From contig CAYFNV010000017.1 in NCBI GenBank assembly GCA_964344595.1, positions 3,660-67,659 of the forward strand: DNA of 64,000 bases, read 5' to 3'. Below, piece by piece: positions 4,547 to 32,700 of this stretch. The stretch is from an uncultured Nitrospina sp. (GTDB lineage: Bacteria > Nitrospinota > Nitrospinia > Nitrospinales > VA-1). The stretch's first letter is position 1. Every line of letters begins with the position of its first letter. Both the position numbers and the translations under genes were made by a program. The notes below the pieces were generated by a model. The model saw only the letters and a list, made by a program, of their open reading frames with translations. It was not told the DNA's origin and did no database searches.

Positions 4547-5323
4547 TCAGGCTTTTGGGGCCAGGATTCCATTTGAATTAAGGAACTGCTTGAAAGTCGG
4601 GTCGTTGAGGATGTGTGGTGAGATCGGCATATTGGCTGGCAATCCTTCAAGGTTGGGACCGAACATTCTCTTCACGTTTTCAGGGAGCGCGATACCTTTT
4701 GATTTGAAGAAGGTCAATACCCCCGGCTCAAAAAGAATATGCGGGGGAAGATTCTCAATTTTAATTTGAGTATTGGCAACCGGTGCAGGAACTGCCGCGG
4801 CTGGGACCGGTGCAGGAGCCGGAGCTGAACGGAAACGAGGTTGACGTTGAACTGCTGCCCTGGTTTGCCGTGGCGCCCGGGCAGTTTCTGCCACTTCAAC
4901 ATTCCTTCCACCTGATAAAAGCCAGACCCTGCTGGTTGCCAGGTTGTCTGTCCAGACTTCTACACGGCTGAATCCTTTTAAAAGTTTGCGAACCGCTGTT
5001 TCCCAGTCATTAGCCTGAATACGGGCACTAAACGGAACGGTTTCAAGGGAAGGATCAACGGAAAATAAAATGCCGGTTTCGTCCTGAATATTTTTTAATA
5101 CATCCAGCAGAGTCAGGTCCTCAAACTGGAGACTGATCCCTTCAGGTTCTGTTTTGGATTTGTATACGGGATTGGGCGGAATACTTGGAGCGGGAGTGGG
5201 AACAACTTCAGGAGCCGGGAGTTGTTTCTGTTCTTTCAAATCAAGAAACCGCGCATCGGCAGACACCTGCCACAACACGAAACCGGTGCCAAGAACGATC
5301 CCTGTCTGGATAAAACGCTTCAT
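4547..5323 (-). CDS. Secreted hypothetical protein, STN/secretin-N0-like domain, Pro/Ala-rich linker, C-terminal LPPHIL module (paralogue of 858..1553)
   Basis: GGAGGA RBS upstream of ATG 5323 and an N-terminal signal peptide (MKRFIQTGIVLGTGFVLWQVSA). Contains ISLQFEDLTLLDVLKNIQDETGILF...IQANDWETAVRKLL...VEVWTDNLATSRVWLL, a PAPAPVPAAAVPAPV linker, and LPPHILFEPGVL. Confidence 0.65.
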   Translation of the reverse strand: MKRFIQTGIVLGTGFVLWQVSADARFLDLKEQKQLPAPEVVPTPAPSIPPNPVYKSKTEPEGISLQFEDLTLLDVLKNIQDETGILFSVDPSLETVPFSARIQANDWETAVRKLLKGFSRVEVWTDNLATSRVWLLSGGRNVEVAETARAPRQTRAAVQRQPRFRSAPAPAPVPAAAVPAPVANTQIKIENLPPHILFEPGVLTFFKSKGIALPENVKRMFGPNLEGLPANMPISPHILNDPTFKQFLNSNGILAPKA

Positions 5324-9747: not shown

Positions 9748-11097
9748 TTAAAAGTTATTTATACAAATCGCAAAGACTCTATAAAACTTTACCAAACCTG
9801 ATTTAGGTGTAAAACGAACTGTCCACGATTGGGGATCGCTGGGGCTTGAAATAATACCCGAGGGGCCGCTAAAATGAACGGTTATATTTGCATCCCCACC
9901 GTGATTAATACCCCCGCCTGTTACTACTTTACCAGCAGGACAATCAGCTCTTACCTCATGAGTGGATCCATCTGACAATGTAGTAGATTGTACAAATACT
10001 TGTTCCCATCCCAGGGATGGAATTATAGGAACCTCTGGAACAGCCGTGAAGTCAAATGATGAAACGCCATTGCTGTTCAATAGGTGGAAGCGGTGAGCAC
10101 CTTGACCGCTGGCAATAATACTAATTGGGACACGCACAGTAATGGTGTTAATGCTGGCTACCAATACATTCCCGCCGCCCGAAGCCTGTTCCGAATGGGT
10201 GTTCAACAGGGTATTGAAATGCGTCACATTGGGTGCTGTGACTCCATCAACAGAAAGTCCAGAGCCATCAATCAGGAACGAAATGTGAGAAGCAGGTAAT
10301 GGAACACAGGTCTCGTTGCCAACCGAGTCGGTGGTACAACTGAGTTCAGGAGGCAGTTGGATGATACGCCTGATCTCAACACCATCTATTTCATCGTTCC
10401 CACCATCAGAACCTGCCGGCCCTTGAGGTCCTTGTGGACCTGTTGCACCCGTGTCACCTTGAATTCCCTGCAGGCCTTGCGGACCCGTTGCACCGGTTGG
10501 ACCTTGCGGACCTTGTGGTCCTGCCGGGCCTGCCAGTCCGGTATCGCCTGGATCGCCCTTGTCACCTTTATCACCTTGGGCACCGTCGGCACCTGCTGGA
10601 CCTGTTTTACCTTGAGGTCCTGCCGGGCCTGCCGGTCCGGTATCGCCTGGATCGCCCTTATCACCTTTATCACCTTGGGCACCGTCGGCACCTGCTGGAC
10701 CTGTTTTACCCTGAGGTCCTGCCGGGCCTGCCGGTCCGGTATCACCTGGGTCGCCCTTGTCACCTTTGGCTCCGTCAGCACCCGGTAAACCTTGCGGACC
10801 GGGGGTCAGTTCAATATCTGCGATTTCCTGTCCCAGGGCATCAACCTCTTCCTCAAGAGCATTGACTTTTTGCCGAAGTCCGTTGCTGCGCCGGCTATCA
10901 TCTTTATCCTTATCGTCATCACGTTTTCTTTTTTTCTTTTTCTTCGCTTTCTTTTTTAGTTTGATTTTTGCGTCCTGTTTTTTCTGTGCAAAGGCCATAC
11001 TAGAAAAAGTGGGATCAGCAGTCAGCATATTGCTGACCAGACTTAAAAGGAAGAATAAAACCGTGAACAGTGCGATTGATAATTGTTGGCGGCGCAT
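9748..11097 (-). CDS. Secreted collagen-like triple-helix repeat protein with IPT/TIG-like and Cys-bracketed beta C-terminal domains (449 aa)
   Basis: GGAGAAAGG RBS. The leader is [40 protein letters not shown], followed by a poly-K/D stretch and [25 protein letters not shown]. Gly-X-Y runs from aa 100 to 233. The C-terminal ~215 aa is unrelated to that of 5539..7566. Confidence 0.9.
10510..10795 (-). repeat. About 2.7 tandem copies of a 99-bp (33-aa) unit inside the collagen tract
   Basis: TCCTGCCGGGCC recurs at 10519, 10618 and 10717 with near-identical intervening sequence. The protein unit is [33 protein letters not shown]. Confidence 0.85.
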
Positions 11098-12000: not shown

Positions 12001-12717
12001 ATGCGATCTTTATTTTTTCCTCCACGAAATCTCCGTGACGAACTGCTGGATCTGGACGAAGCTCCTTATGAGGAGGTCCGTGACAGCTTGAGGGATGTTG
12101 CCACCGTCAACCGCTATTTGAGTGGTTACCGGGTTCTTCTACACCATGTAGAGCCATTTTTAAAATCCCATAAACCGGATCGTCCGTTCAGGGTTTTGGA
12201 TGCGGCCACAGGTTCCGCTGACCAGCCCGTGGCACTGGTCAGGCTGGCGCGCCGTCTGGGTGTGCCTGTTCATATAACTGCTATTGATATCAATGCCAAA
12301 ATGCTGAAACTGGCGAGGGAGGAAGTAGTCCTTTATCCTGAAATCAAACTGGTGCAGGGCGACATTCTTTCATTGCCGTTTCGGGATGAGAGTTTTGACC
12401 TTGCGGTGAATTCTTTATCTCTCCATCATTTTAGTTGGGAGAAGGCGGTGAAGGTTTTAAGGTCGATATATAAGGCCGGGAAATTGGGAATGGTGGTGAA
12501 CGATCTGCACAGGAGCCGAATAGCGCATGCGGCGATATTTTTATTGACGAGAATTTTTACGCGCAACAGGCTGACTCGCTACGATGCGCCGGTTTCTGTG
12601 ATGAATGCATTTACCTCGAAAGAGTTCCGTGAACTGGCTCAACAGGCGGAAATAGAACCTTATGAAGTCCACCGCCATTTTCCCTACCGCATCGCTTTGC
12701 TTGGGCGCAAAAGATGA
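12001..12717 (+). CDS. Class I SAM-dependent methyltransferase
   Basis: Motif I-like VLDAATGSADQP, a DIN acidic loop and VNSLSLHHF (post-II/III). The stop overlaps the next start (ATGA at 12714-12717). Confidence 0.8.
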   Translation: MRSLFFPPRNLRDELLDLDEAPYEEVRDSLRDVATVNRYLSGYRVLLHHVEPFLKSHKPDRPFRVLDAATGSADQPVALVRLARRLGVPVHITAIDINAKMLKLAREEVVLYPEIKLVQGDILSLPFRDESFDLAVNSLSLHHFSWEKAVKVLRSIYKAGKLGMVVNDLHRSRIAHAAIFLLTRIFTRNRLTRYDAPVSVMNAFTSKEFRELAQQAEIEPYEVHRHFPYRIALLGRKR

Positions 12718-13985
12718 ACTCCTTTGATGTTGTCGTTATAGGGGGTGGTCCGGCGGGATGCGCCATGGCACTGGACCTCAACCGTCGTGGTTATCGCGTT
12801 GCTCTTTGTGATCAGGCAAAATTCCCACGTGACAAGGTGTGCGGAGAGTTTGTCAGTCCTGGTGCCGACCCCATTCTTGCTCAGCTGGGTGTCCTTGATG
12901 CCATTGAGGCCTTGACTCCAAAGCGCCTTAAAGGTGTGGCGATCTCTTCTTATGAAAGCGAGGAATTGGGGATCGAATATCCTTTTTCTTCGGAAACCGG
13001 CTTGAGGCCTACCAGTTTATCAGTGCCTAGATATCAGTTGGATGAATTGTTTTTAAGACAAGTTCAAAATTCGGGTGTGAAAGTATTTGAACAACATAAG
13101 GTGACAGGTTTTTTGTTTTCTGAGGGTTGTGTTGCAGGGGTTGAAGGGTGGGATGGAAATAAAACATCGTTTTCACTGAACAGCAAAATGGTGGTGGATG
13201 CAGGAGGACGCAATGCAGTTTCTCTTCGCAAGTTCGGTTTGAAGCGTGAACCCAGGGGAAATTCTAAACTTGCTTTTTCTGCGCACTGGCAGGGTGTGTG
13301 TGTCCCGGAAGATTATTGTTATATGCATGTCAGTCAACCGGGTTATACGGGTATATCTTCTGTGGGAAACGGTCGGACCAATGTGGTTCTTGTGGTGGAC
13401 AGGTCTTCAGTTGGAGGCGAAAAGCCGGAAACTTTTTATCATCGTGTTTTAATGAAAAATTCCCGGCGAATTGGAATGCTATCGGACGGAGAACAGATTG
13501 AACCTGTACGTTCTGTTGAGTCTTTGGCGTTTGCGGTCAAGCCTGTTCCTTGTGGCGGGCTGGTTCTGGTTGGCGATGCAACCGGTTTTATCGATCCATT
13601 TACAGGTGAAGGTATTTATCTGTCGTTACGAAGTGCCCAGCTTGCGGGAGAGGTGATTCAAAATGGGTTTAAGTGTTCAGACTTTTCCAGAAAATTTCTT
13701 TCGGCTTATGACAAGCAACGGCAAAAGGAGTTTGGGGATAAGTTTTTATTGAGCCGTATTCTCCAGGTGCTGATATATAACCGTTTTTTTTGTGATCAGG
13801 TTTTTAGAATACTTACTACTGACCGTGCCCTTGCTGAATCTCTGGTTGGGGTTATTGGAGACATCATGCCAGCCAGAAAAGTGGTTTGCATGAAATTTTT
13901 GTCCCAGCTTCTGGCTGGTGCCTTGAAAAGAAAATCAAAGTCAGAGCCATTAGTTGCTTCTAAGGATAGTCTGGGCGGCTTCTAG
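12714..13985 (+). CDS. FAD-dependent oxidoreductase, geranylgeranyl reductase family
   Basis: N-terminal dinucleotide fold DVVVIGGGPAGCAMA, CGEFVSP, and the C-terminal GDATGFIDPFTGEGI motif typical of GGR/FixC-like flavoproteins. Confidence 0.85.
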   Translation: MNSFDVVVIGGGPAGCAMALDLNRRGYRVALCDQAKFPRDKVCGEFVSPGADPILAQLGVLDAIEALTPKRLKGVAISSYESEELGIEYPFSSETGLRPTSLSVPRYQLDELFLRQVQNSGVKVFEQHKVTGFLFSEGCVAGVEGWDGNKTSFSLNSKMVVDAGGRNAVSLRKFGLKREPRGNSKLAFSAHWQGVCVPEDYCYMHVSQPGYTGISSVGNGRTNVVLVVDRSSVGGEKPETFYHRVLMKNSRRIGMLSDGEQIEPVRSVESLAFAVKPVPCGGLVLVGDATGFIDPFTGEGIYLSLRSAQLAGEVIQNGFKCSDFSRKFLSAYDKQRQKEFGDKFLLSRILQVLIYNRFFCDQVFRILTTDRALAESLVGVIGDIMPARKVVCMKFLSQLLAGALKRKSKSEPLVASKDSLGGF

Positions 13986-15071: not shown

Positions 15072-15768
15072 GCTTCACAACCTCCTTGTTAAGAATATTA
15101 CGGTTTAATTCTGCTTCTGATTTCCTGACATAATGAATGGTCAAGGCATCCAGATCAAAACAGGGTTTATTACTGGATTGATTGAATGCTATTTGAGCCG
15201 CGCTTGCGGCAATAGACTGGTTCTTGACTCGAATTTTATTTATAAACTTGTCTCCCAATTGACAAGAAAAGATATCTTTATAAGTTTCCAGTCCTCCGCC
15301 TAAAAAAATAGTTGGCTCATTAATTGTAGAACATAATTCCTGCGCGGAGACAGCCCGGTCTGGGGTTTCTCTGGACAAATGTTCCCCTGTATATTTAAAA
15401 CTTGCTGTATAAACCTCTTTTTTTCTGGCATCCAGAACCGGGCAGATTGGCTGGGGAACGGGTTTGACCAGATTTGCATAAGCTTCCAGTGTATTGATTC
15501 CCCAAAATGGCTTTTCTGTAGCCAAGACCAGGCCTTTTACCAAGCTAACGCCAACCCGGAGTCCTGTAAATGAACCGGGACCTGTTGTGACGCAGAATGC
15601 ATCCACTTTTTCCAATCCACCTTCTAATTTTTCCAAAACCTCATCCACCATAACAAGAAACTGATCTGAGTACATTGAAGAACTCAATGACTCGGCAATT
15701 ATGCGCTCACCATCAAGAAGAGCTACACTTCCTTTTGGTGTCGAGGCATCAATACCCAATATAATCAT
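15061..15768 (-). CDS. tsaB: tRNA N6-threonylcarbamoyladenosine biosynthesis protein TsaB
   Basis: MIILGIDASTPKGSVALL...VTTGPGSFTGLRVGVS is the YeaZ/TsaB signature. Length is 235 aa. Confidence 0.85.
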   Translation of the reverse strand: MIILGIDASTPKGSVALLDGERIIAESLSSSMYSDQFLVMVDEVLEKLEGGLEKVDAFCVTTGPGSFTGLRVGVSLVKGLVLATEKPFWGINTLEAYANLVKPVPQPICPVLDARKKEVYTASFKYTGEHLSRETPDRAVSAQELCSTINEPTIFLGGGLETYKDIFSCQLGDKFINKIRVKNQSIAASAAQIAFNQSSNKPCFDLDALTIHYVRKSEAELNRNILNKEVVKHGH

Positions 15769-16313
15769 TGTTTCATATTTGGGAAAGGATATTGGAATTC
15801 TAAGGAAAGGAGCATTGGACTACTCCAGAAAGTTTAGTGTAAAGATAGGGGATAGGTAGGGGAAAGTCAATGGGAAAGGGGCTTTTTTAAGCTTCAATAA
15901 GGGACCGATTTAGCATGGTATTTTCCCTTAAGATTCATAGGGTTAAAAATATAACAAGACTGAGGATCAGATCATGAAATGTTTTCAAGTATTTGAAAAA
16001 TTTACATTAATTGACGCCTCTCATACTTTGGGTGATAATTCATGAGGCTTGAATGGCTAAGGAAGGTTTTTTTGAAAAGACTGCTATAGCAGGTGGTTGG
16101 TAAGAGTTTTTCATTGCAAAAACAGTGACTTGAAAGTAAGGTTTGATAAATTTGAATAGTGTTGAATTTGATTGTTGGCAATGGAAGGTTATTATTCAAC
16201 CTATTGAATTTAACTATTCCTGACTTTTAAATAATTCCAACCGGATAGCAGTTATTATTTCTGAACTTTTTAAGAACCCGTCTGATCATGCGTTCAATGC
16301 ACCCAGGGCATGG

Positions 16314-16949
16314 TTGCCATTGATACGGCATTTTTCCTATTACCTTACCCGGCTTTTAATAAAAACACCGATAGTGCCAAATCAGGTTACCACGTTGTCT
16401 TTATTATTTGGGTTGGCCTCTGGAGCAGCATGTTTGAAAGGGACTTATAGCTATACACTTCTAGGCGCGTTTTTTTTGCTCATATGCTATGTGCTCGATA
16501 ATTGTGATGGAGAAATTGCCCGCTTAAAAAATATGTGTAGCCATTTTGGCATGAGGTACGACACGTTTGTAGATTGGGTTGTCCACACTGTTTTCTTTGT
16601 TTGTCTGGGCTGGGGTGCGACTGCGGCCATGGGACAGGAATGGTGGCTGTGGGTGGGTATCGTAACAGGGCTGGGGGGCACCATTAATTATGGTATAGAA
16701 CTATATCAAAACAAAACCCAGCTTCATGCCAGCCAATTGCCTGAAAAAGAAACGATGAAAAAAGATGACGATACGGATATAGATCGGTTTGTATTGAACG
16801 CCCGTATGGTACGTAGTGACTTTTGTTTCATCGTGTTGTTTTTAAGCTTGGGAGGGGTGCTTTGGTATCTTCTTCTTCCCGCTGCTATTGGTGCTCAGGC
16901 TTATTGGTGTCTGCAATTTACCCGAAGCGCACGTCGCTGGCACGTATAA
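16314..16949 (+). CDS. CDP-alcohol phosphatidyltransferase family protein (small, 211 aa)
   Basis: Exact family motif DG-x2-AR-x8-G-x3-D-x3-D in DGEIARLKNMCSHFGMRYDTFVD, with multiple TM segments. The TTG start is uncertain. Confidence 0.8.
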   Translation: MPLIRHFSYYLTRLLIKTPIVPNQVTTLSLLFGLASGAACLKGTYSYTLLGAFFLLICYVLDNCDGEIARLKNMCSHFGMRYDTFVDWVVHTVFFVCLGWGATAAMGQEWWLWVGIVTGLGGTINYGIELYQNKTQLHASQLPEKETMKKDDDTDIDRFVLNARMVRSDFCFIVLFLSLGGVLWYLLLPAAIGAQAYWCLQFTRSARRWHV

Positions 16950-16954
16950 CAATC

Positions 16955-17962
16955 ATGAAACCACTAAAGTTATTGTATCTGCTGATAGGAGTAGGTCTGT
17001 TTGGATTTGTGTTGAACCATACAGACCTTCCTTTGGTTTGGTCTCAGTTAAATAAAATAGGATGGGGCATTTTGGTGGTGTTGGCTGTTTATAAAATTGC
17101 TTTTATTGTGGATACTTTTGCATGGCAGATTACTTTACCCAGTACACAGCTCACTAAAAAATGGTTGTATAATCTTTGGAAGGTTCGCATGGTTGGAGCT
17201 GCTTTCGGTAAAATGTTGCCTTTAAGTGCTTTTGGAGGAGCACCCATAAAAGGCTTTGTTCTTAAACGCTATTATGGAATTCAATACAGAGAAGGAACAG
17301 CATCATTGATTCTGGCAGAATCCACTCATTTGATTTCCATGGTTTTGTTTATGGCTACGGGTGTTTTTCTTATTCTGCTTGATTCCAACCTTCCAGGAAG
17401 TTTCCATTTTTTCGCGGTCATTAGTTTAAGTGCTATCGCTATCGGGATTTTTTTGTTCTATCTTGTCCAACGCTACAAGATTACTTCGTTAACTGGTACG
17501 TGGCTTAGCCAGCGAAAGTTTGGGCAATGGTTGGAAAAATTCATCCATCATATCCACGATATGGATGAGAGGTTGGTTCAGTTTTATACTCGTGACAGAA
17601 GTCGTTTTCTTTCAGCGTCATTTTTGAATCTTATTAACTGGTTTTTAGGTGCACTGGAAATATTTGTCATTTTTTATTTTTTAGGCAACCCTATTACAAT
17701 TGTTGAGGCCATAACTCTGGAAACACTTGTTGAGTTGGTCAGGGCAGGAACATTTTTCATCCCTGCTACTTTGGGTAGTCAGGAGGCAGCCTTTATGGTT
17801 GCAACGGGAGCGATAGCCGGGCAGACAACGTTGGGTGTTGCCGCCTCTTTAATGAGGCGTGTTCGGGAAGTTGTTTGGTTGGCATGGGGTTTCATTATAG
17901 GTCTGGAATATTCACAAAAGCCTTTCGACCTTGCAGAAGCTGCACAGAAAGATTCAGATTAA
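16955..17962 (+). CDS. Flippase-like / LPG_synthase_TM (UPF0104, TIGR00374-like) integral membrane protein
   Basis: The ORF track starts at 16823 and overlaps the previous gene. The ATG at 16955 gives MKPLKLLYLLIGVGLFGFVL and sits directly after the upstream stop. The protein is polytopic, with FGGAPIKGFVLKRYYGI and a pattern typical of the family. Confidence 0.65.
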   Translation: MKPLKLLYLLIGVGLFGFVLNHTDLPLVWSQLNKIGWGILVVLAVYKIAFIVDTFAWQITLPSTQLTKKWLYNLWKVRMVGAAFGKMLPLSAFGGAPIKGFVLKRYYGIQYREGTASLILAESTHLISMVLFMATGVFLILLDSNLPGSFHFFAVISLSAIAIGIFLFYLVQRYKITSLTGTWLSQRKFGQWLEKFIHHIHDMDERLVQFYTRDRSRFLSASFLNLINWFLGALEIFVIFYFLGNPITIVEAITLETLVELVRAGTFFIPATLGSQEAAFMVATGAIAGQTTLGVAASLMRRVREVVWLAWGFIIGLEYSQKPFDLAEAAQKDSD

Positions 17963-18025
17963 GGTTTATGTATTTCAGGTTTTGCAAAGTAACGGATAGT
18001 TTGCCTAAACTAGGTAGTTGATGAT

Positions 18026-18742
18026 ATGAAATGCTTGATCATTATAGCTGGAAAGGGTAGCCGCTTAAAGTCTATGTCTGACAGTAAGCCCCTGACTTCT
18101 TTGTTAGAGGTTCCTCTTGTTGAACGAGTTATTCGTTCTGCATTAGAAGCCGGGGTGGATGGATTTTATGCGGTAGTTGGATATCGAGGTGAGCTGGTCC
18201 GATCTTTCCTTGAAGATTTAGCTGGCAAAATTAGTGTTCCCATAACTGTGATAGATAATACTGACTGGGAAAAGGCTAATGGGCTGTCAGTGCTCAAGGC
18301 GAAAGATTTTTTAAGTGAGCCTTTTTTACTATTAATGGGAGATCATCTTTTTGATCCTGGTATTGTCCGAAAAATGATTGATTATCCCTTGGATGGTGAT
18401 GAGCTTGTCCTTGCTGTCGATCACAATTTAAAAAACCCAATGGTTGATTTGGATGATGTGACTCGAGTTATGGAGAATAAAGGCCTGATTCAGAGTATAG
18501 GCAAAGGAATAGGTGAATACAACTGTTTTGATACTGGAATTTTCCTATGTACTCCAGCGTTATTTTCGGCGCTGGAGAAATCTGCGCGGGACTCTGGTGA
18601 TGACTCACTATCGGGGGGTGTCCAGGTTTTGGCTAAGGAAGAAAAAGTTTGCGTTATGCCGATAGACGGTCTGTTCTGGATTGATATAGATGACCCTGAA
18701 CGGTACAGGCAGGCTGAAAACTATTTGATTAATAATTCCTGA
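18026..18742 (+). CDS. Nucleotidyltransferase (NTP_transferase family), candidate inositol-1-phosphate cytidylyltransferase
   Basis: Intact N-terminal signature IIIAGKGSRLK (GxG[ST]R[LM]), LLMGDHLF, and C-terminal FWIDIDDPERY. It lies in a cluster with MIPS and CDP-alcohol transferases. The substrate assignment is inference. Confidence 0.75.
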   Translation: MKCLIIIAGKGSRLKSMSDSKPLTSLLEVPLVERVIRSALEAGVDGFYAVVGYRGELVRSFLEDLAGKISVPITVIDNTDWEKANGLSVLKAKDFLSEPFLLLMGDHLFDPGIVRKMIDYPLDGDELVLAVDHNLKNPMVDLDDVTRVMENKGLIQSIGKGIGEYNCFDTGIFLCTPALFSALEKSARDSGDDSLSGGVQVLAKEEKVCVMPIDGLFWIDIDDPERYRQAENYLINNS

Positions 18743-18749
18743 AAACATT

Positions 18750-20000
18750 TCAGGAACGTTCGGGGCATTTAACCGAATAAAGCTCCATAGAGCGTAAATA
18801 AATAAGATAGGTAGCGAAGATCGTTGCGCCAATTGCTGCGATAGAGATAAACATATGTACCAAATCGAAAACTGTTGTGAACATAAGAAAATGGATAAAA
18901 TCCCTATTGGCGAGTTTATCAACCAATGAGGGTTGTAACTTCGGAGAAGGTTGGTGATTGTTAGAGCTCTTTTTGACAATAGATGCTCCCAGAAGAAAAA
19001 ATGAGGTAAGGCTGGCAAATGCAGCCAATATTCCAATGTATATATACATTTGCTCGCCTGTCGCTTTGCTCATTCCCCACCCAATAGCACTAAACACTAA
19101 GAAGTGAACAATATTGTCGCAAAGAATATCGAGCTTGCCACCTAATTCGGACTCCATGAACTTCAGTCTGGCTATCTCTCCATCTACTCCGTCCACCCAG
19201 GTCGAAAAAACTAGCAAGATGCCACCGTATACATTTGCTTGGTAAGTTCCTTGAAAAAAGAAAAATGCCGAAGATAATCCCATCACAAAACTTAGTAGCG
19301 TAATTTGGTTCGGGCTGATAGGTGTATTTAAAAAAAAGCGGCTGAGTTTTCTGGAAACCGGGCGGGATAAAAGTCTGGTTATTGTGCTGTCATGGTTTTG
19401 GCCAGAGCCTTTAAGCAATTGCTCATGTAAAATATCGAAATCCTTATAGTCTGTTATACGGTGTTTTGTAGGCCCGGATATGTATAGAAAAGCATGTTGA
19501 TCTTCTATGGACTCCTCATATTTTTCTTTGTCATTCGTTTGAATTTTGTGAACCAATGATTCAAGGTGCTTTTCGTTGAGGTGTGAATTTTCAGGAATTT
19601 TTGTGTTGTCCGTATCAGTTTTATCTAATATGGAACTAACTTCTTTTTTATCATGAAGTGCTGAGCCATTAAAAATAAGAACCCGGTTTTTCAGGTTTCT
19701 TAAAGCTTCTTTTAGTTTTTCTGGATCAGAAATCCAATGAATATTTGAGGTGATGCGAAAATCTTCCTCGATAAGATTTGCTAATGGTTTAATATCATGG
19801 GTGTCCATGTATATGATGATGTCATGGAGCCCGCATCTCTGAAGAGTCAGAATGTTTCTTAAAAGGAATGGTACCCCTGCGATGGCCGATCCGTACCACT
19901 CTGTAGCTTTCCATGAATTTGGTGGGGAAGGTAAATAGAGGACTCCACATTTGTTTTGAGGGGAATCTTTGGGTAATAAACTGTTTGTGGTTTCGTTCAT
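18750..20000 (-). CDS. Fusion protein: degenerate nucleotidyltransferase-like N-domain + CDP-alcohol phosphotransferase C-domain (IPCT/DIPPS-like architecture)
   Basis: The C-terminal half has the exact motif DGEIARLKFMESELGGKLDILCD plus about 6 TM segments. The N-terminal ~190 aa has an NTP-transferase-like fold pattern (AIAGVPFLLRNILTLQRCGLHDIIIY) but lacks the GxGtRl loop (VLYLPSPPNSW instead). Confidence 0.75.
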   Translation of the reverse strand: MNETTNSLLPKDSPQNKCGVLYLPSPPNSWKATEWYGSAIAGVPFLLRNILTLQRCGLHDIIIYMDTHDIKPLANLIEEDFRITSNIHWISDPEKLKEALRNLKNRVLIFNGSALHDKKEVSSILDKTDTDNTKIPENSHLNEKHLESLVHKIQTNDKEKYEESIEDQHAFLYISGPTKHRITDYKDFDILHEQLLKGSGQNHDSTITRLLSRPVSRKLSRFFLNTPISPNQITLLSFVMGLSSAFFFFQGTYQANVYGGILLVFSTWVDGVDGEIARLKFMESELGGKLDILCDNIVHFLVFSAIGWGMSKATGEQMYIYIGILAAFASLTSFFLLGASIVKKSSNNHQPSPKLQPSLVDKLANRDFIHFLMFTTVFDLVHMFISIAAIGATIFATYLIYLRSMELYSVKCPERS

Positions 20001-20283
20001 CCGTCAGTGAGTGGATAGAGCCTTTTTAAAATTAGTATATTATAGTGTTCCTCTGATTTTAAGCTGTTTATTTTTATAGATTGTTTTAACAAGGTAGTCA
20101 GGCTTTTGTAAATACTCTAAATTGGAAAATAAAACTGTCCAATACGCTTGCAGGATGTTATTCTCACACAGAATTAAAAAATTTTCCACGATTGTACCTT
20201 ACTTCTTGCTATAACGGCTTTCCGACAGAACCTGTTTGCAACCACTAGAGTGCGATCTTAACAGATTAGGAGATAGACTTTAA

Positions 20284-21636
20284 ATGAATGAAGCTAGTGA
20301 TAACTATAGTGGTTTGGTGAAACAAATTGCACCGCCAAAAGGAAAGTTGGGTGTTTTATTGCCAGGGATGGGGGCGGTTAGTTCGACTCTTATAGCGGGA
20401 GTCTTTCTGGTTAATTCGGGGCATGCCAAACCCATCGGGTCAGTTACGCAAATGTCACGAATACGCCTGGGTAAAAGAGATAACCCGCGGTATCCTTTGA
20501 TTAAAGACTTTGTTCCCCTTGCAGACTTGGATGATATTGAATTTGGTGGATGGGATATTTATGACGATAACTGCTATCAGGCAGCACTGGCTTGTGGGGT
20601 GATTGAAAAGCAGGAGCTTGATCTGGTAAAGGAACAGCTTGAAGGGATAAAACCATGGGCAGCTGTGTTCGATCCCAATTTTGTGAGAAATCTTACCGGA
20701 ACAAATATAAAGAGTGCTCCCAATAAAATGGAGCTAGCCAAACTTTTGATGCAGGATGTTGAAACCTTCAAAAAGGAAAAAGGTTTGGATCGGTTGGTGA
20801 TGTGCTGGTGTGGTTCCACGGAAGCTTATCAGGATTGTATGGACCATGAAGCATTTCAAACATTGGAAGCGTTCGAATCGGCTTTGGAAAATGATCTTGA
20901 TCTGATTCCTCCTTCAATGATTTATGCTTATGCTGCTCTAAAAATGGGAATTCCCTTTGCCAACGGTTCTCCAAACCTTACTGTAGATGTTCCGGCACTG
21001 GTTGAGTTGTCCATCAAAAACAAAACACCTATAGGCGGCAAAGACTTTAAAACAGGTCAAACCCTGATGAAGACGATTGTTGCACCGGGTCTCAAGTCAA
21101 GAATGCTGGGGCTTGATGGGTGGTTTTCCAGTAACATACTGGGTAACCGCGATGGGGAAGTACTGGATGACCCTGATTCATTTCGATCTAAAGAAGTAAG
21201 CAAAGGATCGGTTTTGGAAAGTATCTTGCAGGATGATCTATATCCCGATCTTTATGGTGATTATTACCATAAAATCCGTATCGAATATTATCCACCAAGA
21301 GGGGATGCCAAGGAAGGATGGGATAATATAGATATCCAGGGGTGGTTGGGTCAAAAAATGCAATTGAAAATAAATTTCCTCTGCCGCGATTCAATTTTAG
21401 CTGCCCCTGTAGTTCTGGATCTAGTCTTATTTCTGGATTTGGCTCAGAGGGCTGGGATGAGAGGTGTCCAGGAATGGCTTTCGTTTTATTTTAAATCTCC
21501 TCAATGCAGACCGGATCTCAAGCCAGTGAACTCCTTGTTCGATCAGGATGAGAAGCTGCGTAATACGTTGCGAATCATTATGGGTGAGAAGGTGATTGAC
21601 CACTCAGGCTTGGATTATTACGAAAACAAAGGCTGA
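20284..21636 (+). CDS. ino1: myo-Inositol-1-phosphate (inositol-3-phosphate) synthase
   Basis: 450 aa. N-terminal Rossmann LGVLLPGMGAVSSTLIAG. FANGSPNLTVDVPAL corresponds to NGSPQNTFVPG, and SSNILGNRDG corresponds to SYNHLGNNDG. Also GGKDFKTGQTLMKT. Confidence 0.9.
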   Translation: MNEASDNYSGLVKQIAPPKGKLGVLLPGMGAVSSTLIAGVFLVNSGHAKPIGSVTQMSRIRLGKRDNPRYPLIKDFVPLADLDDIEFGGWDIYDDNCYQAALACGVIEKQELDLVKEQLEGIKPWAAVFDPNFVRNLTGTNIKSAPNKMELAKLLMQDVETFKKEKGLDRLVMCWCGSTEAYQDCMDHEAFQTLEAFESALENDLDLIPPSMIYAYAALKMGIPFANGSPNLTVDVPALVELSIKNKTPIGGKDFKTGQTLMKTIVAPGLKSRMLGLDGWFSSNILGNRDGEVLDDPDSFRSKEVSKGSVLESILQDDLYPDLYGDYYHKIRIEYYPPRGDAKEGWDNIDIQGWLGQKMQLKINFLCRDSILAAPVVLDLVLFLDLAQRAGMRGVQEWLSFYFKSPQCRPDLKPVNSLFDQDEKLRNTLRIIMGEKVIDHSGLDYYENKG

Positions 21637-21748
21637 GTTATTTTTATTATGGAAATGAACAGCGGCTTTCCTGGATTCAAAATCAACAGTTTTTCATCTT
21701 GGTTAGAGAACTAACCTTCCTTCAACAAGTTAGTGCTCTTTTTCAATA

Positions 21749-21779
21749 TAACTGCTATTTAGCAGTTATTGTTTTTTTT
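21749..21779 (+). terminator. Rho-independent terminator after the MIPS gene
   Basis: Stem TAACTGCT 21749-21756 / AGCAGTTA 21761-21768 with a 4-nt loop, followed by TTGTTTTTTTT. Confidence 0.6.
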
Positions 21780-21935
21780 GTACTTGCCTTTTTAATATTT
21801 CTCGCAGGAAATTTTTATCAAACTTGCTTTTAATTAAAGGTCCTTTTCTGTTTATTTTCACCAAATAGGTAGAGTAAATCTGAAGACCATTAGGGGGAAC
21901 CTTAATTAGCCATTGAAAAAGTTAGCTTTATTTGC

Positions 21936-21964
21936 TTGACATCAATTGCTGTTAGCATTATGGT
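21936..21964 (+). promoter_or_regulatory. Candidate sigma70-type promoter
   Basis: TTGACA (21936-21941), a 17-nt spacer, then TATGGT (21959-21964), about 100 nt upstream of the small ORF at 22069. Confidence 0.3.
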
Positions 21965-22068
21965 GAATGTTAGTTGCAGGGTAAATCTTATTTTTTGGTT
22001 TATCACATAGGAGAAAAGCTGCCAGAAAATAAGGCATCAAGGACTTTTTTTTGGAGGCAGGGCGCGTT

Positions 22069-22260
22069 ATGTTCTACGAGGTCAGGATTTTCGACGCCAA
22101 AGGAGAGCTGAAAAAAGTTTTATCCCCTAAAAAGTTAAGCAACCGATTTTGGAAGAATGGTGACCAGAATTTGATCGACTTTGGTGAAAAGGACACTTCA
22201 TCCTCAGATTGGGAGAACAAAAAAATTATCAAGGATGAGTATCAACTTGAAGACCGTTGA
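22069..22260 (+). CDS. Small hypothetical protein (63 aa)
   Basis: ATG at 22069, 8 nt after GGAGG (22053-22057). No family recognised. Confidence 0.4.
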   Translation: MFYEVRIFDAKGELKKVLSPKKLSNRFWKNGDQNLIDFGEKDTSSSDWENKKIIKDEYQLEDR

Positions 22261-22424
22261 TTAAAAATGTTTTAACGGATTATTTAAATTATTAATGGCA
22301 TGGGGCTAATGCTCTATGCCATTTTTTATGCCTTGAAAGAGAGCTTTCCTGTATTATTTTTATACTGTTTATCTCCTGTATTACTTCTGATATAGGTTTA
22401 ATCTGATTACTAAGAGTTGATTTT

Positions 22425-23585
22425 ATGTATATAACGTCCGCCGACCAGTTAAAGGATTTTTGTGAAAATATTAGATCTGCTGAAGTCCTGGCAGTAGATA
22501 CTGAATTTGTCAGGGAAAGGACTTATTTCCACCGTGTGGGGCTGATTCAGGTTGGTACCGGAAAACATTTTGCGGCCATTGACCCTATAATGCTTTCCGA
22601 TTTGACGCCATTATTGGAGTTGTTAAAAGATCCTGAAAAATTAAAAGTCTTTCATGCCGCAAGGCAGGACCTTGAAATTCTGGTGCGTCTATGTGGTCAG
22701 GTGATTCCCCCTATCTTCGATACTCAGATCGCCGCTTCTTTGGTGGGGTGGGGAGCCCAGATATCTTTTTCGAAAATAGTCCACAAAGCTTTGGGAAAAA
22801 AAATTCATAAATCAGAAACTTATACTGATTGGTGCCGTCGCCCTTTGAGCGATAATCAGATTGAATACGCTATAGATGATGTTCGATATTTAATGCCAGT
22901 TTATGACAAACTGGTGGGACGACTTAAGAAAATGGGTCGTTTGGACTGGGTAAGGGGAGAAGTTGAGAACTGGGAAGACCCCAGTACATTTGCTTTGCCG
23001 GATCCACAAAAAAGATTTATGAAAATTAAAAACCTGCGTAGCTTGAGACCCAGAAACTTGACTGTGCTTCAGGAACTTGCCGCATGGAGAGAAGTTGAAG
23101 CAGTCAAAAGAGATTGCTTGGCCAAGTCAATTATCAGGGATGAAACATTGCTGGAAATTGCCCGCAAAATCCCCAGGGATGAAAAAACACTATCCAGAAT
23201 TCGGGGCTTTTATCCTAAGGAACTTAATAAAAGTGGAGCATCCTTATTGTCTGCGATTGAAAAGGCTATGGCGGTACCAGAAGATGCCCTCGTTGCGCTT
23301 CCGGAAAAAAACGGGCACGCCACTACACGAGGGGTGGAAGAATTGCTTTCCGCGTATGTACAAATAAGGTCTGAAGAGTTGAAGATCGAACCAAGTGTTC
23401 TGGCAGATCGCAAACAGATTCACAGCTTTGTTGCCCACTATGAGCAAAATGAAGATTTGGAAAAACATTTCCTGTTTCAGGGATGGCGCAAAGAATTGAT
23501 CGGTGCCCCAATGTTTTCTTTGTTGAGCGGCAAGGTTGGGCTTAAGATTAATCCTTCTGGTCAGATCTGTTTGATAAATTCGTAA
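22425..23585 (+). CDS. rnd: Ribonuclease D
   Basis: DEDD 3'-5' exonuclease motifs (LAVDTEFVRERTY, HAARQDLE, YAIDDVRYL) followed by an HRDC-type region. Length is 386 aa. Confidence 0.9.
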   Translation: MYITSADQLKDFCENIRSAEVLAVDTEFVRERTYFHRVGLIQVGTGKHFAAIDPIMLSDLTPLLELLKDPEKLKVFHAARQDLEILVRLCGQVIPPIFDTQIAASLVGWGAQISFSKIVHKALGKKIHKSETYTDWCRRPLSDNQIEYAIDDVRYLMPVYDKLVGRLKKMGRLDWVRGEVENWEDPSTFALPDPQKRFMKIKNLRSLRPRNLTVLQELAAWREVEAVKRDCLAKSIIRDETLLEIARKIPRDEKTLSRIRGFYPKELNKSGASLLSAIEKAMAVPEDALVALPEKNGHATTRGVEELLSAYVQIRSEELKIEPSVLADRKQIHSFVAHYEQNEDLEKHFLFQGWRKELIGAPMFSLLSGKVGLKINPSGQICLINS

Positions 23586-28581: not shown

Positions 28582-29694
28582 TCAGGAGTCAGCAAATTCC
28601 AGGGCAATGTTTCTAAATTCATCTTCAATATTTAACAGAGCGTCAACCATATCAGGGTCAAAGTGTGATCCTTTTCCATGGGTAATAATTCCGATGGCTT
28701 TATTATGGGGAATAGGAGGTTTGTAAACGCGCTTGCTAATAAGCGCGTCATAAACATCAGCCACTGCCATCAGCCTTCCTGAAAAAGGTATATCTTCCCT
28801 TTTAAGCCCGTCTGGGTAGCCCGAGCCGTCCCATTTTTCCTGATGACTGTGGGCGATTTCCCGTGCATACCTTAGAAACGTGGATTCTCCTCCCAGCATT
28901 TTTTCAGCTGCAATGATTGCATCCCGTCCATAAATGGTATGTTTTTTCATTTCCTCAAATTCATCATTGGTCAACTTACCGGGCTTCATGAGAATGCTGT
29001 CAGGAACTCCCACTTTTCCAATATCGTGCAAAGGTGCGGATTTGTATATTAGCTCTATATTGCCATTGGTTAATTCGGAGCTGAACTTGTCATCTTTTTG
29101 CATCTCTATAGCAAGTGCTCTGATATAGTTTTGAGTTCGCTTGATATGCCCGCCAGTTTCCGGGTCGCGAAATTCAGCAACAACAGCCATGCTGAAGATA
29201 GTGACATCTTGAGTGAGAACCAGTTCCTTGGTGCGTTCTTTTACTTTTTCTTCAAGAATGACATTTTGATTTTCCAAACTTTTCTGCGCCATTTTCAGCA
29301 ATAAATGATTTTTTACTCTCTCTTGCACAATGGGCGGGCTGATAGGTTTAGTTATATAGTCAATCGCTCCCAATTCCAGGCCTTTGGTCTCATTTTCTTC
29401 GCTGGTCATGGCCGTGAGAAAGATGACTGGAATTTCTTTTGTTGCTTCTTCGGATTTAAGCCTTTTGCACACTTCGTAACCGTCCATTTCAGGCATCATT
29501 ATATCCAGTAAAATAAGATCGGGCGGGTTATCTGAATTTGCTATTTGTAGAGCCTTTTTCCCGTTAATGGCCACGCTCCGTTTATAATCGGATAAAACTT
29601 CGATAAGGACATCTATGTTTTCAGGAGTATCATCGACTATCAGAATTCTTTGACTACTCAATAGTTTATCCATTTTGTTTTCCTTGATGCTCAA
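28582..29694 (-). CDS. Response regulator with HD-GYP domain (RpfG-type c-di-GMP phosphodiesterase)
   Basis: REC domain (ILIVDDTPENI...LILLDIMMPEMDG...ITKP), then HD-GYP (LHDIGKVGVPDSIL...HHQEKWDGSGYPDGL). An alternative start is at MDKLL. Confidence 0.9.
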   Translation of the reverse strand: MSIKENKMDKLLSSQRILIVDDTPENIDVLIEVLSDYKRSVAINGKKALQIANSDNPPDLILLDIMMPEMDGYEVCKRLKSEEATKEIPVIFLTAMTSEENETKGLELGAIDYITKPISPPIVQERVKNHLLLKMAQKSLENQNVILEEKVKERTKELVLTQDVTIFSMAVVAEFRDPETGGHIKRTQNYIRALAIEMQKDDKFSSELTNGNIELIYKSAPLHDIGKVGVPDSILMKPGKLTNDEFEEMKKHTIYGRDAIIAAEKMLGGESTFLRYAREIAHSHQEKWDGSGYPDGLKREDIPFSGRLMAVADVYDALISKRVYKPPIPHNKAIGIITHGKGSHFDPDMVDALLNIEDEFRNIALEFADS

Positions 29695-29728
29695 ATCTGC
29701 TATGCTAAAGCTATCAAATGATAGACAG

Positions 29729-32700
29729 CTAAGAATCTTTGTTTAATTTGTCCAGTATTTTTGAAATTCCCTCGTCATCAAACTGACCTGCTAATTTTTT
29801 TAATTCAGCGACAAGTCCTCTGCCACCAGGATCAACGTGCTCTATTTTCTCATAAAACCTGTCAAGCTCCAGCAGCATTCCTCTTTGGAGGTATTCCTTC
29901 ATTTCAATAATGAGAGAAGAGGGAAGTTGTATTTTTAAGTAATCGTTGACTCCCGATTCTGCGTGATCTTTTTCAATCAAAACCTGAAGAGAATCTAGGA
30001 CCAGCTCCAGCTCTTTGTGAAATTCTTTAAATAACTTTGTGGGAATTTTCTTTTTCCCATTGCGCAGTGCTTCTTCCAAGGGTTCAGAAGCTTTTGCTAA
30101 ATCTTTTGCTCCAATCGTAGCGGCAACTCCTTTAATGGTATGTACTAATCTTTGCGCAAGCTTTTTATTGCCTTTTTCTATTGCACTTTGAATATCTGAT
30201 TTTGCGTTTAAATTATTCTGGCAGAATTTAATCAGCATTTTCCGATAGAGATCCTCATTGCCATTGACTCGGGCTAGACCATCTTGAATATCAATTTCAG
30301 GGAGTTCGGGGAATTCGGTTTGAGGTTCATTAACATGTGGCGAATTGGAATTTTTTGTGGGTGGGATCCACTTTATAAGGCTTTTATACAATTCTTTGGG
30401 GTCAATGGGTTTTCCCACATAATCGTTCATTCCTGAGTCCAGACATTTTTCCCGATCACCCTGCATGGCATTGGCAGTCATGGCTATTATTGGAAGATCT
30501 TTGAACCTAACATCTTTTCTGATAGCCTTGGTGGCTTGAAATCCGTCCATTTCCGGCATTTGAATATCCATGAGAACACCATCGAATTGTAATGTGTTGA
30601 CACGATCTACTGCTTTTTTTCCATTGCTTGCCACGGTGACAACCATGCCTACTTCTTCAAGCAGTTCAATGGCAATTTCTTGGTTGATTTCGTTGTCCTC
30701 AACAAGTAAAACTCGTGCGCCTTTGATATTTTTCAAGGCTTTGCTTTCTTGTGAATCCAGTTCTAACTGAAAAGATTTTCTCGGTACCTTTCGCTCAATT
30801 TTTTTCCCAAAGACTTCCATGATGGTTTCAAGCATGACGGAAGTATTCATGGGTTTAACCAGAAATGCATCCAAACCTGCTTTTATTGCCTGGTTTGCTA
30901 CCTCTTCACGACCATAAGCCGTGAGCATGATGATCTTGGGGATATGTTTTAGTTTAGGATGATTCTTGATAATCTCGGATGCCCGGATACCGTTCATCTC
31001 TGGCATTTGCCAGTCCATGATTACAAGGTCAAACGGTTTTTTAGAGTCGGCGGACTCAATCATGGAAATGCATTCGGCCCCGGAAGTTGCCATGGAAACA
31101 TCAAAGGAAAGAGATGACAAAGCGTGGTCCAATACTTCTCGTGCGGATTCATTATCATCCACTATAAGCACATTTTTTCCTCTAAGATCCTCGGAAATAA
31201 TTAATGCGCTTTCTTTTTCACCTTCTTCTTTCTTAAAGTTTGCAGTAAAAAAGAAACTGCTTCCTTTGCCGGGTTCGCTTTCAACCCAGATTTCCCCTTC
31301 CATCATTTCAACAAGTTTTTTACAGATTGTGAGCCCCAGCCCTGTCCCTCCATACTTTCGAGTCGTGGAAGAATCTGCTTGGCTGAAAGATTGAAATAAC
31401 CTACTAATTTGTTCCTCATTGAGTCCAATACCTGTATCCCTTACTTCAAACTTAAGTTGAATCTCATCCCTTTCTTCCTTTAATGATATGATTCGAACAA
31501 TAATCTCACCATGCTCCGTAAACTTCACCGCGTTATTAGTTAAATTTGTCAATATTTGACCTAAGCGTAGCGGATCTCCTATAAGATGGCGTGGAACAGT
31601 TCTACCTACAGAGAATAAAACCTCCAAACCCTTTTCCTGGGCCTTCATGGTAACCAATGTGGCAAGGTGGTCCAGCACTTCATCGAGATGAAAACTGGTT
31701 TTCTCAATGGTCATTTTTCCGGCTTCTATTTTGGAAAAATCAAGGATGTCGTTGATAATGCCGAGCAGGGCCTGGCTCGAAACCTGAATTTTGTCTATGT
31801 AGTTTAGTTGCTTGGATGTCAATTCGGTCTTTTTTACTAAGTGACTCATCCCTATAATTGCATTCATAGGAGTCCTGATTTCATGGCTCATGTTGGCAAG
31901 AAAATCACCTTTAGATTGGTTTGCAAACTCAGCCTCTCTCTGTGCCTGTTCAAGTTCTTTGGTTCTTTCTTCAACTTTCAGTTCAAGGTTTTGTCTTTCT
32001 TCAGCCAATGCCGCTTCAACTTTCTTTTCTTCGGTGATATCACGGCTTGTAGTGGCAATTGCCACAATTTTTTCATCCTCATCTTTCAATAATGAAAAGG
32101 TAAGTAGTACCGGGCTGAGCTTTTGTTTGCGATCCCAGCGTACTCCTTCAATATTGTTGAGAGATTCTCCACGTTTGCATCTTTCCAACAATTCATCTGC
32201 TTGTTTGTGTTTTTCAGGAGGGACCAGGCTTTTAATAGGTTTGGAAAGTAGTTCTTCTCGAGAGTAACCATAGGCCTTTTCAGCAGCTCTGTTTAAATCA
32301 ATAATGATACCATTAGAATCCTCAATAATTATTGGATCCGAAGCATCCTCAAAGACTTTTGCAATCCGGCTTTTTTCCTGGGTAACTTTTAGCATTTCCT
32401 GTAGCCTTAACTGGTTTGCTGCTGTATTCAGGGAAATAGCTACCCCTTCTGCTGTGATCCTGATTAGTTCAAGTTGACGATCTAAAAACTTCTCTATCGA
32501 TCCCAGAACTAGAACTCCCAAAGCTTCATTTTCGTAGATAAGAGGGTATATAAATATGTTTCTTGGTTTTATGACACCAACCCCTGCATTAATTTCCATG
32601 TCGTTGTTTTCAGCATCTATATCCTGCAACAAAATTTCCTTCTGGGACTTTGCAGCTTGCCCCACAAGACCTTCTCCGAAGTTAAAAGATTTGTTGTTTA

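Follow-up and report, generated by a model that had tools for sequence, protein, structure and literature searches.

A conserved five-gene block of Nitrospinota that may encode a CDP-inositol pathway to a membrane lipid

In this work, we examined a 64,000-nucleotide stretch of DNA (hereafter the window) from an uncultured Nitrospina sp. (GenBank assembly GCA_964344595.1, contig CAYFNV010000017.1, positions 3,660 to 67,659 of the forward strand) and analyzed a block of five open reading frames (ORFs) at positions 16314-21636, whose genes, delimited by ORF calling and a Pfam search, are named here S, L, N, F and M. The reading we favor, to which we assign about an even chance of being right, is that the block constitutes a CDP-inositol pathway which builds an inositol-phosphate membrane lipid and flips it. 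The features of the block are as follows.

16314-16949, plus strand: S, small CDP-alcohol phosphotransferase of the six-transmembrane (six-TM) type, 211 amino acids (aa) from a TTG start (PF01066, 51 bits)
16955-17962, plus strand: L, MprF-flippase-like membrane protein, 335 aa (PF03706 LPG_synthase_TM, 87 bits)
18026-18742, plus strand: N, CTP:inositol-1-phosphate cytidylyltransferase (IPCT)-like protein, 238 aa (PF12804 NTP_transf_3, 45 bits)
18750-20000, minus strand: F, whole gene, 416 aa (PF01066, 46.4 bits at residues 229-342)
18750-19400, minus strand: C-terminal half of F, CDP-alcohol phosphotransferase, about residues 201-416 (PF01066; C-terminal half of NF041135, 86 bits)
19401-20000, minus strand: N-terminal half of F, degenerate and cytidylyltransferase-like, about residues 1-200 (modelled fold, conserved columns)
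20001-20283, no strand: intergenic region of 283 bp between the divergent genes F and M (gene coordinates)
20284-21636, plus strand: M, myo-inositol-1-phosphate (inositol-3-phosphate) synthase (MIPS) of the long, 450-aa type (PF07994, 308 bits; PF01658, 109 bits)

All five genes had been recognized in a first-pass annotation of the window, and their coordinates and families were borne out by our ORF calls and by Pfam matches above the gathering scores. For the 416-aa gene F the coordinates stood, but the annotation had missed its location on the minus strand, convergent with N and divergent from M, as well as the decay of its N-terminal domain and the connection with hopanoid genes. The intergenic gaps along S-L-N-F-M are 5, 63, 7 and 283 bp. 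The G+C content of the block (about 0.40) is similar to that of the surrounding sequence, and the flanking genes are housekeeping ones (TsaB, an HDOD protein, RNase D and MutL, according to Pfam/NCBIfam).

The M protein belongs with the MIPS enzymes: both its Pfam domains score above threshold, and its best solved-structure match, at 507 bits, is 7nwr, the characterized BT_1526 MIPS of Bacteroides thetaiotaomicron (PMC9246714). The N protein has the nucleotidyltransferase (NTase) fold and keeps an intact AGKGSRL...K signature (MKCLIIIAGKGSRL), in line with the "intact NTP-transferase" of the annotation. Among the NCBIfam models, it best matches the N-terminal half of the bifunctional IPCT/DIPPS one, NF041135 (122 bits), and its top three solved-structure matches are all IPCTs (2xme, AfIPCT, 75 bits; 4mnd, 75 bits; 4jd0, 65 bits), as against at most 47 bits for sugar-1-phosphate enzymes. 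N is thus closest to the characterized IPCTs and does not group with the sugar-1-phosphate transferases, the outcome that the annotation had named as one that would undermine its proposal. N adjoins MIPS in 27 loci, and in two Rhodospirillales loci (L055 and L057) its family is fused to MIPS (Inos-1-P_synth, 120 bits; NTP_transf_3, 52 bits), which provides direct evidence from genomes that the product of MIPS is the substrate of the N family. Judged by its sequence, the 238-aa N protein is predicted to be the real, working cytidylyltransferase of the block, and it is a well-supported prediction that M and N supply CDP-inositol. The two fusion genes (L055:12708-14597 and L057:12727-14640, both on the minus strand) each encode a single 629-637-aa protein that joins an IPCT-like domain to a MIPS of the short type, unlike the long M of the window; they adjoin S, an HpnL-like gene and an F-like transferase gene.

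The C-terminal half of F has six TM helices and carries the motifs DGVDGEIARLKFMES and ANRDFIHFL. The catalytic motif that the annotation had read as DG-x2-AR-x8-G-x3-D-x3-D is exact in both transferases of the block, in the fuller form D-x2-DG-x2-AR-x8-G-x3-D-x3-D (DNCDGEIARLKNMCSHFGMRYDTFVD and DGVDGEIARLKFMESELGGKLDILCD), and both proteins belong to the class I family PF01066 (S 51.1 bits, F 46.4 bits, cut-off 22). A Pfam search of the first 200 residues of F matched no family, and the family alignment showed that this N-terminal domain is devoid of GxGxRL across 16 family members, yet strongly conserved (W35, Y36, IAGxP, LRN, QR and NG). Because it has neither a Pfam match nor an AGxGxRL signature, unlike N, we regard the cytidylyltransferase half of F as degenerate. 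The alphaproteobacterial counterparts of F (F' proteins) likewise lack GxGxRL, while their separate N proteins have the signature.

The origin of this domain was indicated by structure comparison. The AlphaFold model of F (overall pLDDT 69.7, 83-90 in blocks of the N-terminal domain) places a Rossmann-like beta-alpha domain atop the six TM helices. Its best Foldseek match is Af2299 (4o6n/4o6m/4q7c) at full length, over about 410 columns (E 1e-10, TMt 0.66); IPCT-DIPPS also matches at full length (TMq 0.61), and GlmU/RmlA-type nucleotidyltransferases match weakly. In the F family profile, residues 169-200 align with the final strand and helix of the AfIPCT domain. When the profile was compared with the N sequence, no relationship of the N-terminal domain to a nucleotidyltransferase was detected (probability 0.1). 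The full-length Foldseek matches and the AfIPCT alignment suggest that F is a decayed fusion of the IPCT-DIPPS type with the layout of Af2299, i.e., judging from the model, a non-catalytic cytidylyltransferase-like domain packed on a six-TM transferase domain. The annotation had called F an "IPCT/DIPPS-like fusion": the two-domain architecture holds, but an active cytidylyltransferase half does not, as GxGxRL has been lost. By sequence, F scores 85 bits against Af2299, 57 against AfDIPPS and 30 against PIPS (107, 65 and 30 bits with the family profile). The bifunctional model NF041135 requires at least 580 bits on one polypeptide, and here N matches only its N-terminal half and F its C-terminal half (122 and 86 bits).

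The S protein is a paralogue of the membrane half of F (29% identity, E 9e-29) and is marked by LDNCDGEIAR, RxxRxDFCF and a C-terminal AIGAQxYW...RRxHV. Its start at TTG is uncertain, the relatives being called at 171-255 aa; the long form is favored because the N-terminal "PL(V/I)RH" is conserved. To place both transferases phylogenetically, as the annotation had proposed, a neighbor-joining (NJ) tree of the motif region was built (95 columns, 100 bootstraps, PIPS references as an outgroup), in which S and F are both separate from the PIPS references. S and the small CDP-alcohol phosphotransferases of the hopanoid and phosphonate loci described below form one clade with 100% bootstrap, within which the monophyly of S alone has 10% support; as only the larger clade is robust, we make no claim of an S function separate from that of these paralogues. 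The F proteins of Nitrospinota and the alphaproteobacterial F' proteins form groups with 100% support each, and Af2299 joins AfDIPPS with 91%; the branching order of the three lineages has 47% support. Neither transferase groups with PgsA or PssA, which the annotation had also named as a possible refutation: against TIGR00560 (cut-off 109) and TIGR00473 (cut-off 107), S scores 19.5 and 29.2 bits and F 17.9 and 25.7 bits, and the best matches are Af2299 and DIPPS.

These data bear on a classical phosphatidylinositol (PI) route, in which S would be a PIP synthase acting on CDP-diacylglycerol and inositol-1-phosphate, an unlinked phosphatase would yield PI, L would flip it, and N and F would separately make di-myo-inositol phosphate (DIP) or be accessory. 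S has the size of PIP/AIP synthases, its best NCBIfam match is AIP synthase, and its RxxR sits where RsPIPS has a phosphate-binding arginine (PMC4634129); moreover, BT_1521-like genes go with the PIP-route cluster in Bacteroides (PMC9246714). All the same, the scores against the PIP/AIP synthase models NF045883, NF052561 and NF040950 (cut-offs 170, 350 and 180 bits) are only 32, 37 and 53 bits for S, and 41, 26 and 57 bits for F. The best solved-structure match of S is Af2299 (50 bits), and no PIPS was found among its matches at E<=0.01. In the tree, S stands with the transferases of hopanoid and phosphonate loci, most S-L pairs lack a MIPS gene within 10 kb, and the route would leave CDP-inositol without a lipid role. 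We consider this route improbable.

The L protein has its longest ORF from position 16823, and the ATG at 16955 agrees with the 335-aa homologues. It passes the flippase-like models TIGR00374 (51.7 bits, cut-off 43.2) and PF03706 (cut-off 33.4). Its best named NCBIfam match is HpnL (TIGR03476), with 158.5 bits under a cut-off of 195.65. The L homologues that directly follow S score 141-175 bits against this model, all under its cut-off, so that the S-coupled L proteins appear to be a sister subfamily of HpnL. In the AlphaFold model of L (pLDDT 76, pTM 0.74), the only real structural match found by Foldseek is the transmembrane region of MprF from P. aeruginosa (9j8s, TMq 0.62), the rest having TM below 0.25.

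F, S and L have hundreds of relatives each, the closest of which are all from Nitrospinota, under the database names Nitrospinae, Nitrospinia or Nitrospinota; for S and L, the next-closest group comprises Rhodospirillales and other Proteobacteria (45-52% identity), and the homologue lists of S and L have the same taxonomic distribution. A profile scan with the S family over one genome per GTDB species gave 197 relatives, and the best 80 loci were analyzed by ORF calling, clustering, and labelling of six-frame segments by phmmer with seed proteins. In Nitrospinota, inositol genes lie beside S in 21 of the 31 loci, and all five genes occur in the order S>L>N><F M> in 19, within two unrelated flank contexts, one with TsaB and the other with radical-SAM and PNPOx-like genes. 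In Alphaproteobacteria, the order is N>F'>M>S>L in three loci (L040, L041 and L044, with HpnN adjoining in L040) and N>F'>M>S in two (L036 and L037), while L055 and L057 have S>L>F'< plus the single MIPS-NTase fusion protein (629 aa).

In three Nitrospinota metagenome-assembled genomes (MAGs; L011, L020 and L026), an S-family gene without L or inositol genes directly follows the genes for a peptidase M16 and an ABC1/UbiB-type kinase. In the second flank context (L013-L031, e.g., L022:604-2439 and L014:7313-7918; L086:12604-15054), a divergent B12/radical-SAM protein of 611 aa and a PNPOx-like flavoprotein flank the block. A link of the 611-aa protein to the block was rejected: it matches the RiPP C-methyltransferase model TIGR03975 with 592 bits, and it had clustered with HpnJ-like proteins merely via the shared B12/radical-SAM domains.

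S and L form a pair in their own right. Among the 76 S genes with enough downstream sequence, 52 are directly followed by an L-type gene, and a further five have a canonical HpnL divergently adjacent. In 32 of the 51 proteobacterial loci, S-L lies among hopanoid genes, either between HpnN and HpnM or beside HpnI/J/K. The typical order is HpnN>S>L<HpnM<HpnM, then MlaA; the other, cdp<HpnK<HpnJ-like<HpnI<HpnL>S, was found in MAGs labelled Legionellales, Rhodospirillales or Proteobacteria. The identity of these neighbors was verified with the NCBIfam models: HpnN scores 1051 bits (cut-off 752), HpnM 185 (160), HpnI 381.5 (310), HpnK 282 (233), and the canonical HpnL beside HpnI/J/K 255 (196). The arrangement extends to Nitrospinaceae, where in MAG GCA_029261555.1 (locus L019) S-L has a true HpnH (493 bits) on one side and an HpnN-like gene (643 bits) on the other.

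A phosphonate module (a phosphoenolpyruvate (PEP) mutase-NTase fusion, phosphonopyruvate decarboxylase and a PhyH-like dioxygenase) lies beside S in eight loci of Rhodospirillales and other Alphaproteobacteria. In six of the eight, it includes two extra small CDP-alcohol phosphotransferases and is located upstream of HpnN-S or S-L, inositol genes being absent from the vicinity; L036 and L037 carry both the phosphonate and inositol modules. Terpenoid genes next to PEP mutase were remarked on in a 2021 paper on Acetobacteraceae (PMC8776678). Marine Rhodospirillales MAGs with the module beside HpnN-S-L-HpnM are represented by L003, L043, L050, L056, L060, L065, L072, L081 and L083, and examples of its coordinates are L036:12784-14442, L065:7445-8713 and L083:788-1558. 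The location of this module beside hopanoid transporter genes suggests a phosphonate-bearing lipid of a kind not yet described.

An exhaustive search with the S family profile gave 103 cluster representatives at E<=1e-30, and inspection of the best 150 revealed four informative fusions. P0428 (520 aa) joins an S-like transferase to LPG_synthase_TM. P0497 (769 aa) consists of LPG_synthase_TM, a degenerate middle domain and an F-like transferase (25% identity to F over 354 aa, E 2e-25), and its start is overlapped by a 251-aa NTase gene. P0404 (519 aa) is a true S with an aspartyl/asparaginyl beta-hydroxylase domain of the LpxO/OlsC lipid-hydroxylase type, and P0421 (445 aa) is an intact NTase-transferase fusion. 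Since both transferase types are found fused to a flippase-like domain, as in the layout of MprF, we regard the fusions as the strongest argument for membrane-lipid products.

Taken together, the results allow us to propose a pathway of two modules. In the first (M, N and F), M would turn glucose-6-phosphate into inositol-1-phosphate, N would activate the latter with CTP to CDP-inositol, and F, working on the cytoplasmic side of the inner membrane, would move a phospho-alcohol group, its own cytidylyltransferase domain now being probably structural. In the second (S and L), S, a member of a clade otherwise found in hopanoid clusters, would perform a second head-group transfer on a membrane lipid, and L would carry the product to the outer leaflet. 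The pathway would thus end in a membrane lipid bearing inositol phosphate, with diacylglycerol and a hopanoid polyol as candidate anchors; the substrates of F and S, the lipid nature of the product and its flipping by L are what we infer from the data above. A lipid is favored because the modules are repeatedly co-located, fusions exist, lipid-transport genes are neighbors, and there is a parallel in Bacteroidetes. The annotation had argued from the extra transferase and the flippase-like protein to a membrane product, and the conserved S-L pair, the fusions and the position in hopanoid clusters lend substance to that argument.

Several points weigh against this proposal. Af2299 and AfDIPPS, the nearest relatives of F and S, are described as not processing lipids (PMC4634129), and the six-TM layout shared by S and F is tied to soluble acceptors, the lipid-acceptor enzymes having 3-4 extra helices (PMC4634129). 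The conserved basic residues of the acceptor site (RxxR in S, K...NRDF in F) would suit a phosphorylated soluble acceptor. Two Nitrospinota loci (L024 and L030) are without L, and in MAG GCA_029261555.1 M-F-N lies on one contig without S-L (L085) and S-L on another among hopanoid genes, so that the five genes appear as two separable modules. The relatives are all uncultured MAGs known from genes alone, and our literature search found no paper on inositol compounds or polar lipids of Nitrospina or Nitrospinota.

Soluble-substrate relatives, the six-TM layout, the basic acceptor residues and module separability make a DIP-like solute alongside a lipid module the main rival: M-N-F would make a soluble inositol phosphodiester, either DIP via DIPP or a glycero-phospho-inositol-like compound, for use as osmolyte or piezolyte by a marine bacterium of cold waters, and S-L would act in hopanoid or lipid head-group metabolism, merely co-located with M-N-F or perhaps co-regulated with it under envelope or osmotic stress. 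N and F do mirror the two halves of the IPCT/DIPPS model, the degenerate domain of F would be a relic of such a fusion, and an osmolyte role has been proposed for the ipct/dipps genes of non-thermophilic Thaumarchaeota from the deep sea (PMC8397731). On the other hand, S-L and M-N-F are co-located repeatedly, in three gene orders and two phyla, and in P0497 an F-type transferase is fused to a flippase-like domain with an NTase gene beside it. F is closer to Af2299 than to true DIPPS and far under the equivalog cut-off. A six-frame regex scan of the whole window, at the motif level only, revealed no DIPP phosphatase or inositol-monophosphatase motif, which extends the annotation's remark that no inositol monophosphatase is visible in the cluster, and Nitrospinales are reported as likely ectoine users (PMC10579370). 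We rate two independent functions as a serious alternative, about half as probable as a lipid pathway.

Another explanation is that CDP-inositol decorates an envelope polymer other than a lipid, for instance a capsule, a chain of the teichoic-acid-like type or a polyprenyl-carried glycoconjugate, and that L translocates a carrier-linked intermediate. MIPS-dependent inositol has been detected in the capsule of B. thetaiotaomicron (PMC9246714), and homologues with LPG_synthase_TM domains are often annotated by name with glycosyltransferases. Nevertheless, in neither Nitrospinota context does the block contain or adjoin a gene for a glycosyltransferase, a polymerase or a polyprenyl-phosphate transferase, and the conserved neighbors elsewhere are lipid transporters (HpnN, HpnM and MlaA), not polysaccharide export genes. 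We find this the least probable of the explanations considered.

Within the proposal of a lipid product, the hopanoid neighborhoods allow a more specific, tentative and rather doubtful version: S- and F-type transferases would put phospho-head groups directly on extended hopanoids (bacteriohopanepolyols), with HpnL-type proteins as flippases for export by HpnN/HpnM. Nitrospinota and some marine Rhodospirillaceae would use inositol phosphate as the head group, and other Rhodospirillales a group of the 2-aminoethylphosphonate type. HpnL is treated in publications as a protein of unknown function, with no mention of a CDP-alcohol transferase partner (bioRxiv 10.1101/2025.07.29.667474; PMC12583986). 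Nitrospinae have been reported to have hopanoid genes (PMC10579370 and references therein). In the window, no hpn or shc genes were found, and the six-frame regex scan, again at the motif level, detected neither PAP2 nor squalene-hopene-cyclase signature motifs.

As for control signals, the region 20001-20283 is presumed, from its position, to be a shared control region for F and M. A scan of 15500-22500 gave promoter-like and terminator-like matches at chance level, and an Rfam search matched no family to 20001-20283 and gave nothing meaningful.

Other features of the window were noted in passing. On the plus strand at 12001-13985, a PRK06202-type methyltransferase gene overlaps a geranylgeranyl-reductase-family flavoprotein gene by 4 bp. 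The two were considered as members of the block and rejected, as they are present, syntenic with FxsA, in just one of the two Nitrospinota flank contexts; they look like lipid or quinone tailoring genes unrelated to the block. The 788-bp gap from MIPS to RNase D contains a 69-aa ORF (22051-22260, plus strand), and L006, L008 and L073 have a 70-74-aa ORF at the same site, the likeness being one of position and size. Two large proteins with long collagen-like G-x-y repeats are encoded on the minus strand at 5539-7566 and 9748-11097 (Pfam Collagen, 74.5 bits for the latter). Two paralogous proteins of about 250 aa with a common N-terminal domain are encoded at 858-1598 and 4547-5323, also on the minus strand, the latter gene ending about 200 bp from the collagen-like gene 5539-7566. 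Finally, at 28582-34534 on the minus strand, a 370-aa HD-GYP-type response regulator lies beside a 1601-aa hybrid sensor kinase, the domains having been read by eye from the translations.

The families of the individual parts are already known. What is new, as far as the literature searched shows, is the occurrence of this five-gene architecture in Nitrospinota and in marine Alphaproteobacteria, the nature of F as a decayed fusion, and the S-type transferase with an HpnL-like flippase tied to hopanoid loci, where inositol and phosphonate modules are interchangeable. Nitrite in the ocean is oxidized mainly by Nitrospinota, whose membrane chemistry serves as a geochemical tracer. CDP-inositol chemistry is biochemically known only from a hyperthermophile solute, and the bacterial inositol-lipid route is a genomic prediction for gut Bacteroidetes; the block would put this chemistry in cold-water bacteria, and the gene orders and fusions connect it both with an MprF-like flippase and with a transferase clade of hopanoid clusters. 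This offers candidates for the function of HpnL and for the enzymes completing the CDP-inositol lipid route, and predicts polar lipids not yet reported, among them a phosphonate-linked counterpart for the marine Alphaproteobacteria. If the hopanoid version were true, the main ocean nitrite oxidizers would have a new lipid class (phospho-inositol and phosphono hopanoids), and HpnL would have a function.

In described gene content, the block resembles the alternative inositol-lipid cluster of Bacteroides vulgatus and Prevotella (Heaver et al. 2022, PMC9246714), for which a CDP-inositol lipid route was proposed as a prediction: both have a long BT_1526-like MIPS, an NTP transferase (proposed there for CDP-inositol), a CDP-alcohol phosphotransferase and, close by, an LPG-synthase-like gene. 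In Bacteroidetes, such a gene, a BT_1521 homologue, accompanies both inositol-lipid cluster types (PMC9246714). The function is only predicted in either case. The cluster of B. vulgatus has a HAD hydrolase and one transferase, whereas the block has two transferases, one with a degenerate N-terminal domain, and shares only the first three of the defining genes (MIPS, NTP transferase, CDP-alcohol phosphotransferase and HAD hydrolase), as no HAD-family gene was found in the block or its flanks by Pfam/NCBIfam. With the PIP/AIP synthases (PgsA1 of M. tuberculosis, PIPS of R. salmoninarum and BT_1523), the transferases share the superfamily, the six-TM size class and inositol-1-phosphate chemistry, but S and F score far under the cut-offs and lie apart from the PIPS references in the tree.

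The HpnL model tops the matches of L, and relatives of S-L lie between hpnN and hpnM/mlaA or beside hpnI/J/K, as in hpn clusters; L and its S-coupled relatives are, however, under the HpnL cut-off, and the window has no hpn gene. L is predicted from its model to have the fold of the transmembrane region of MprF, a lysyl-phosphatidylglycerol synthase and flippase, and the S-L pair, together with the fusions of L-type domains to S-like and F-like transferases, repeats the layout of a head-group enzyme with a flippase. The partner in the block is a CDP-alcohol phosphotransferase instead of an aminoacyl-tRNA-dependent transferase, and the flippase role of L is predicted.

The IPCT/DIPPS pathway (A. 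fulgidus AF0263, PDB 4mnd/2xme; Thermotoga, Thermococcales) follows the same logic of MIPS, a cytidylyltransferase and a membrane CDP-alcohol phosphotransferase; N is nearest to the solved IPCTs, and F shares both the two-domain layout and the catalytic motif. It differs in that the cytidylyltransferase of the block is on a separate gene and degenerate inside F, that F scores lower against DIPPS than against Af2299, that the hosts are cold or mesophilic marine bacteria, and that the block adds a second transferase and a flippase-like protein. The closest single protein is Af2299 of A. fulgidus (PDB 4o6m/4o6n/4q7c), a CDP-alcohol phosphotransferase with a cytidylyltransferase-like N-terminal domain and without an established physiological role. 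It is the best full-length match of F in both sequence and structure, including the non-catalytic N-terminal domain, shares the DGxDGEIARLKFMES motif with it, and is the best solved-structure match of S too. Af2299 is archaeal, was crystallized with CDP-glycerol and has about 20-22% identity to F in the structural alignment; F, in turn, adjoins MIPS and an IPCT-like enzyme, which makes CDP-inositol its likely donor.

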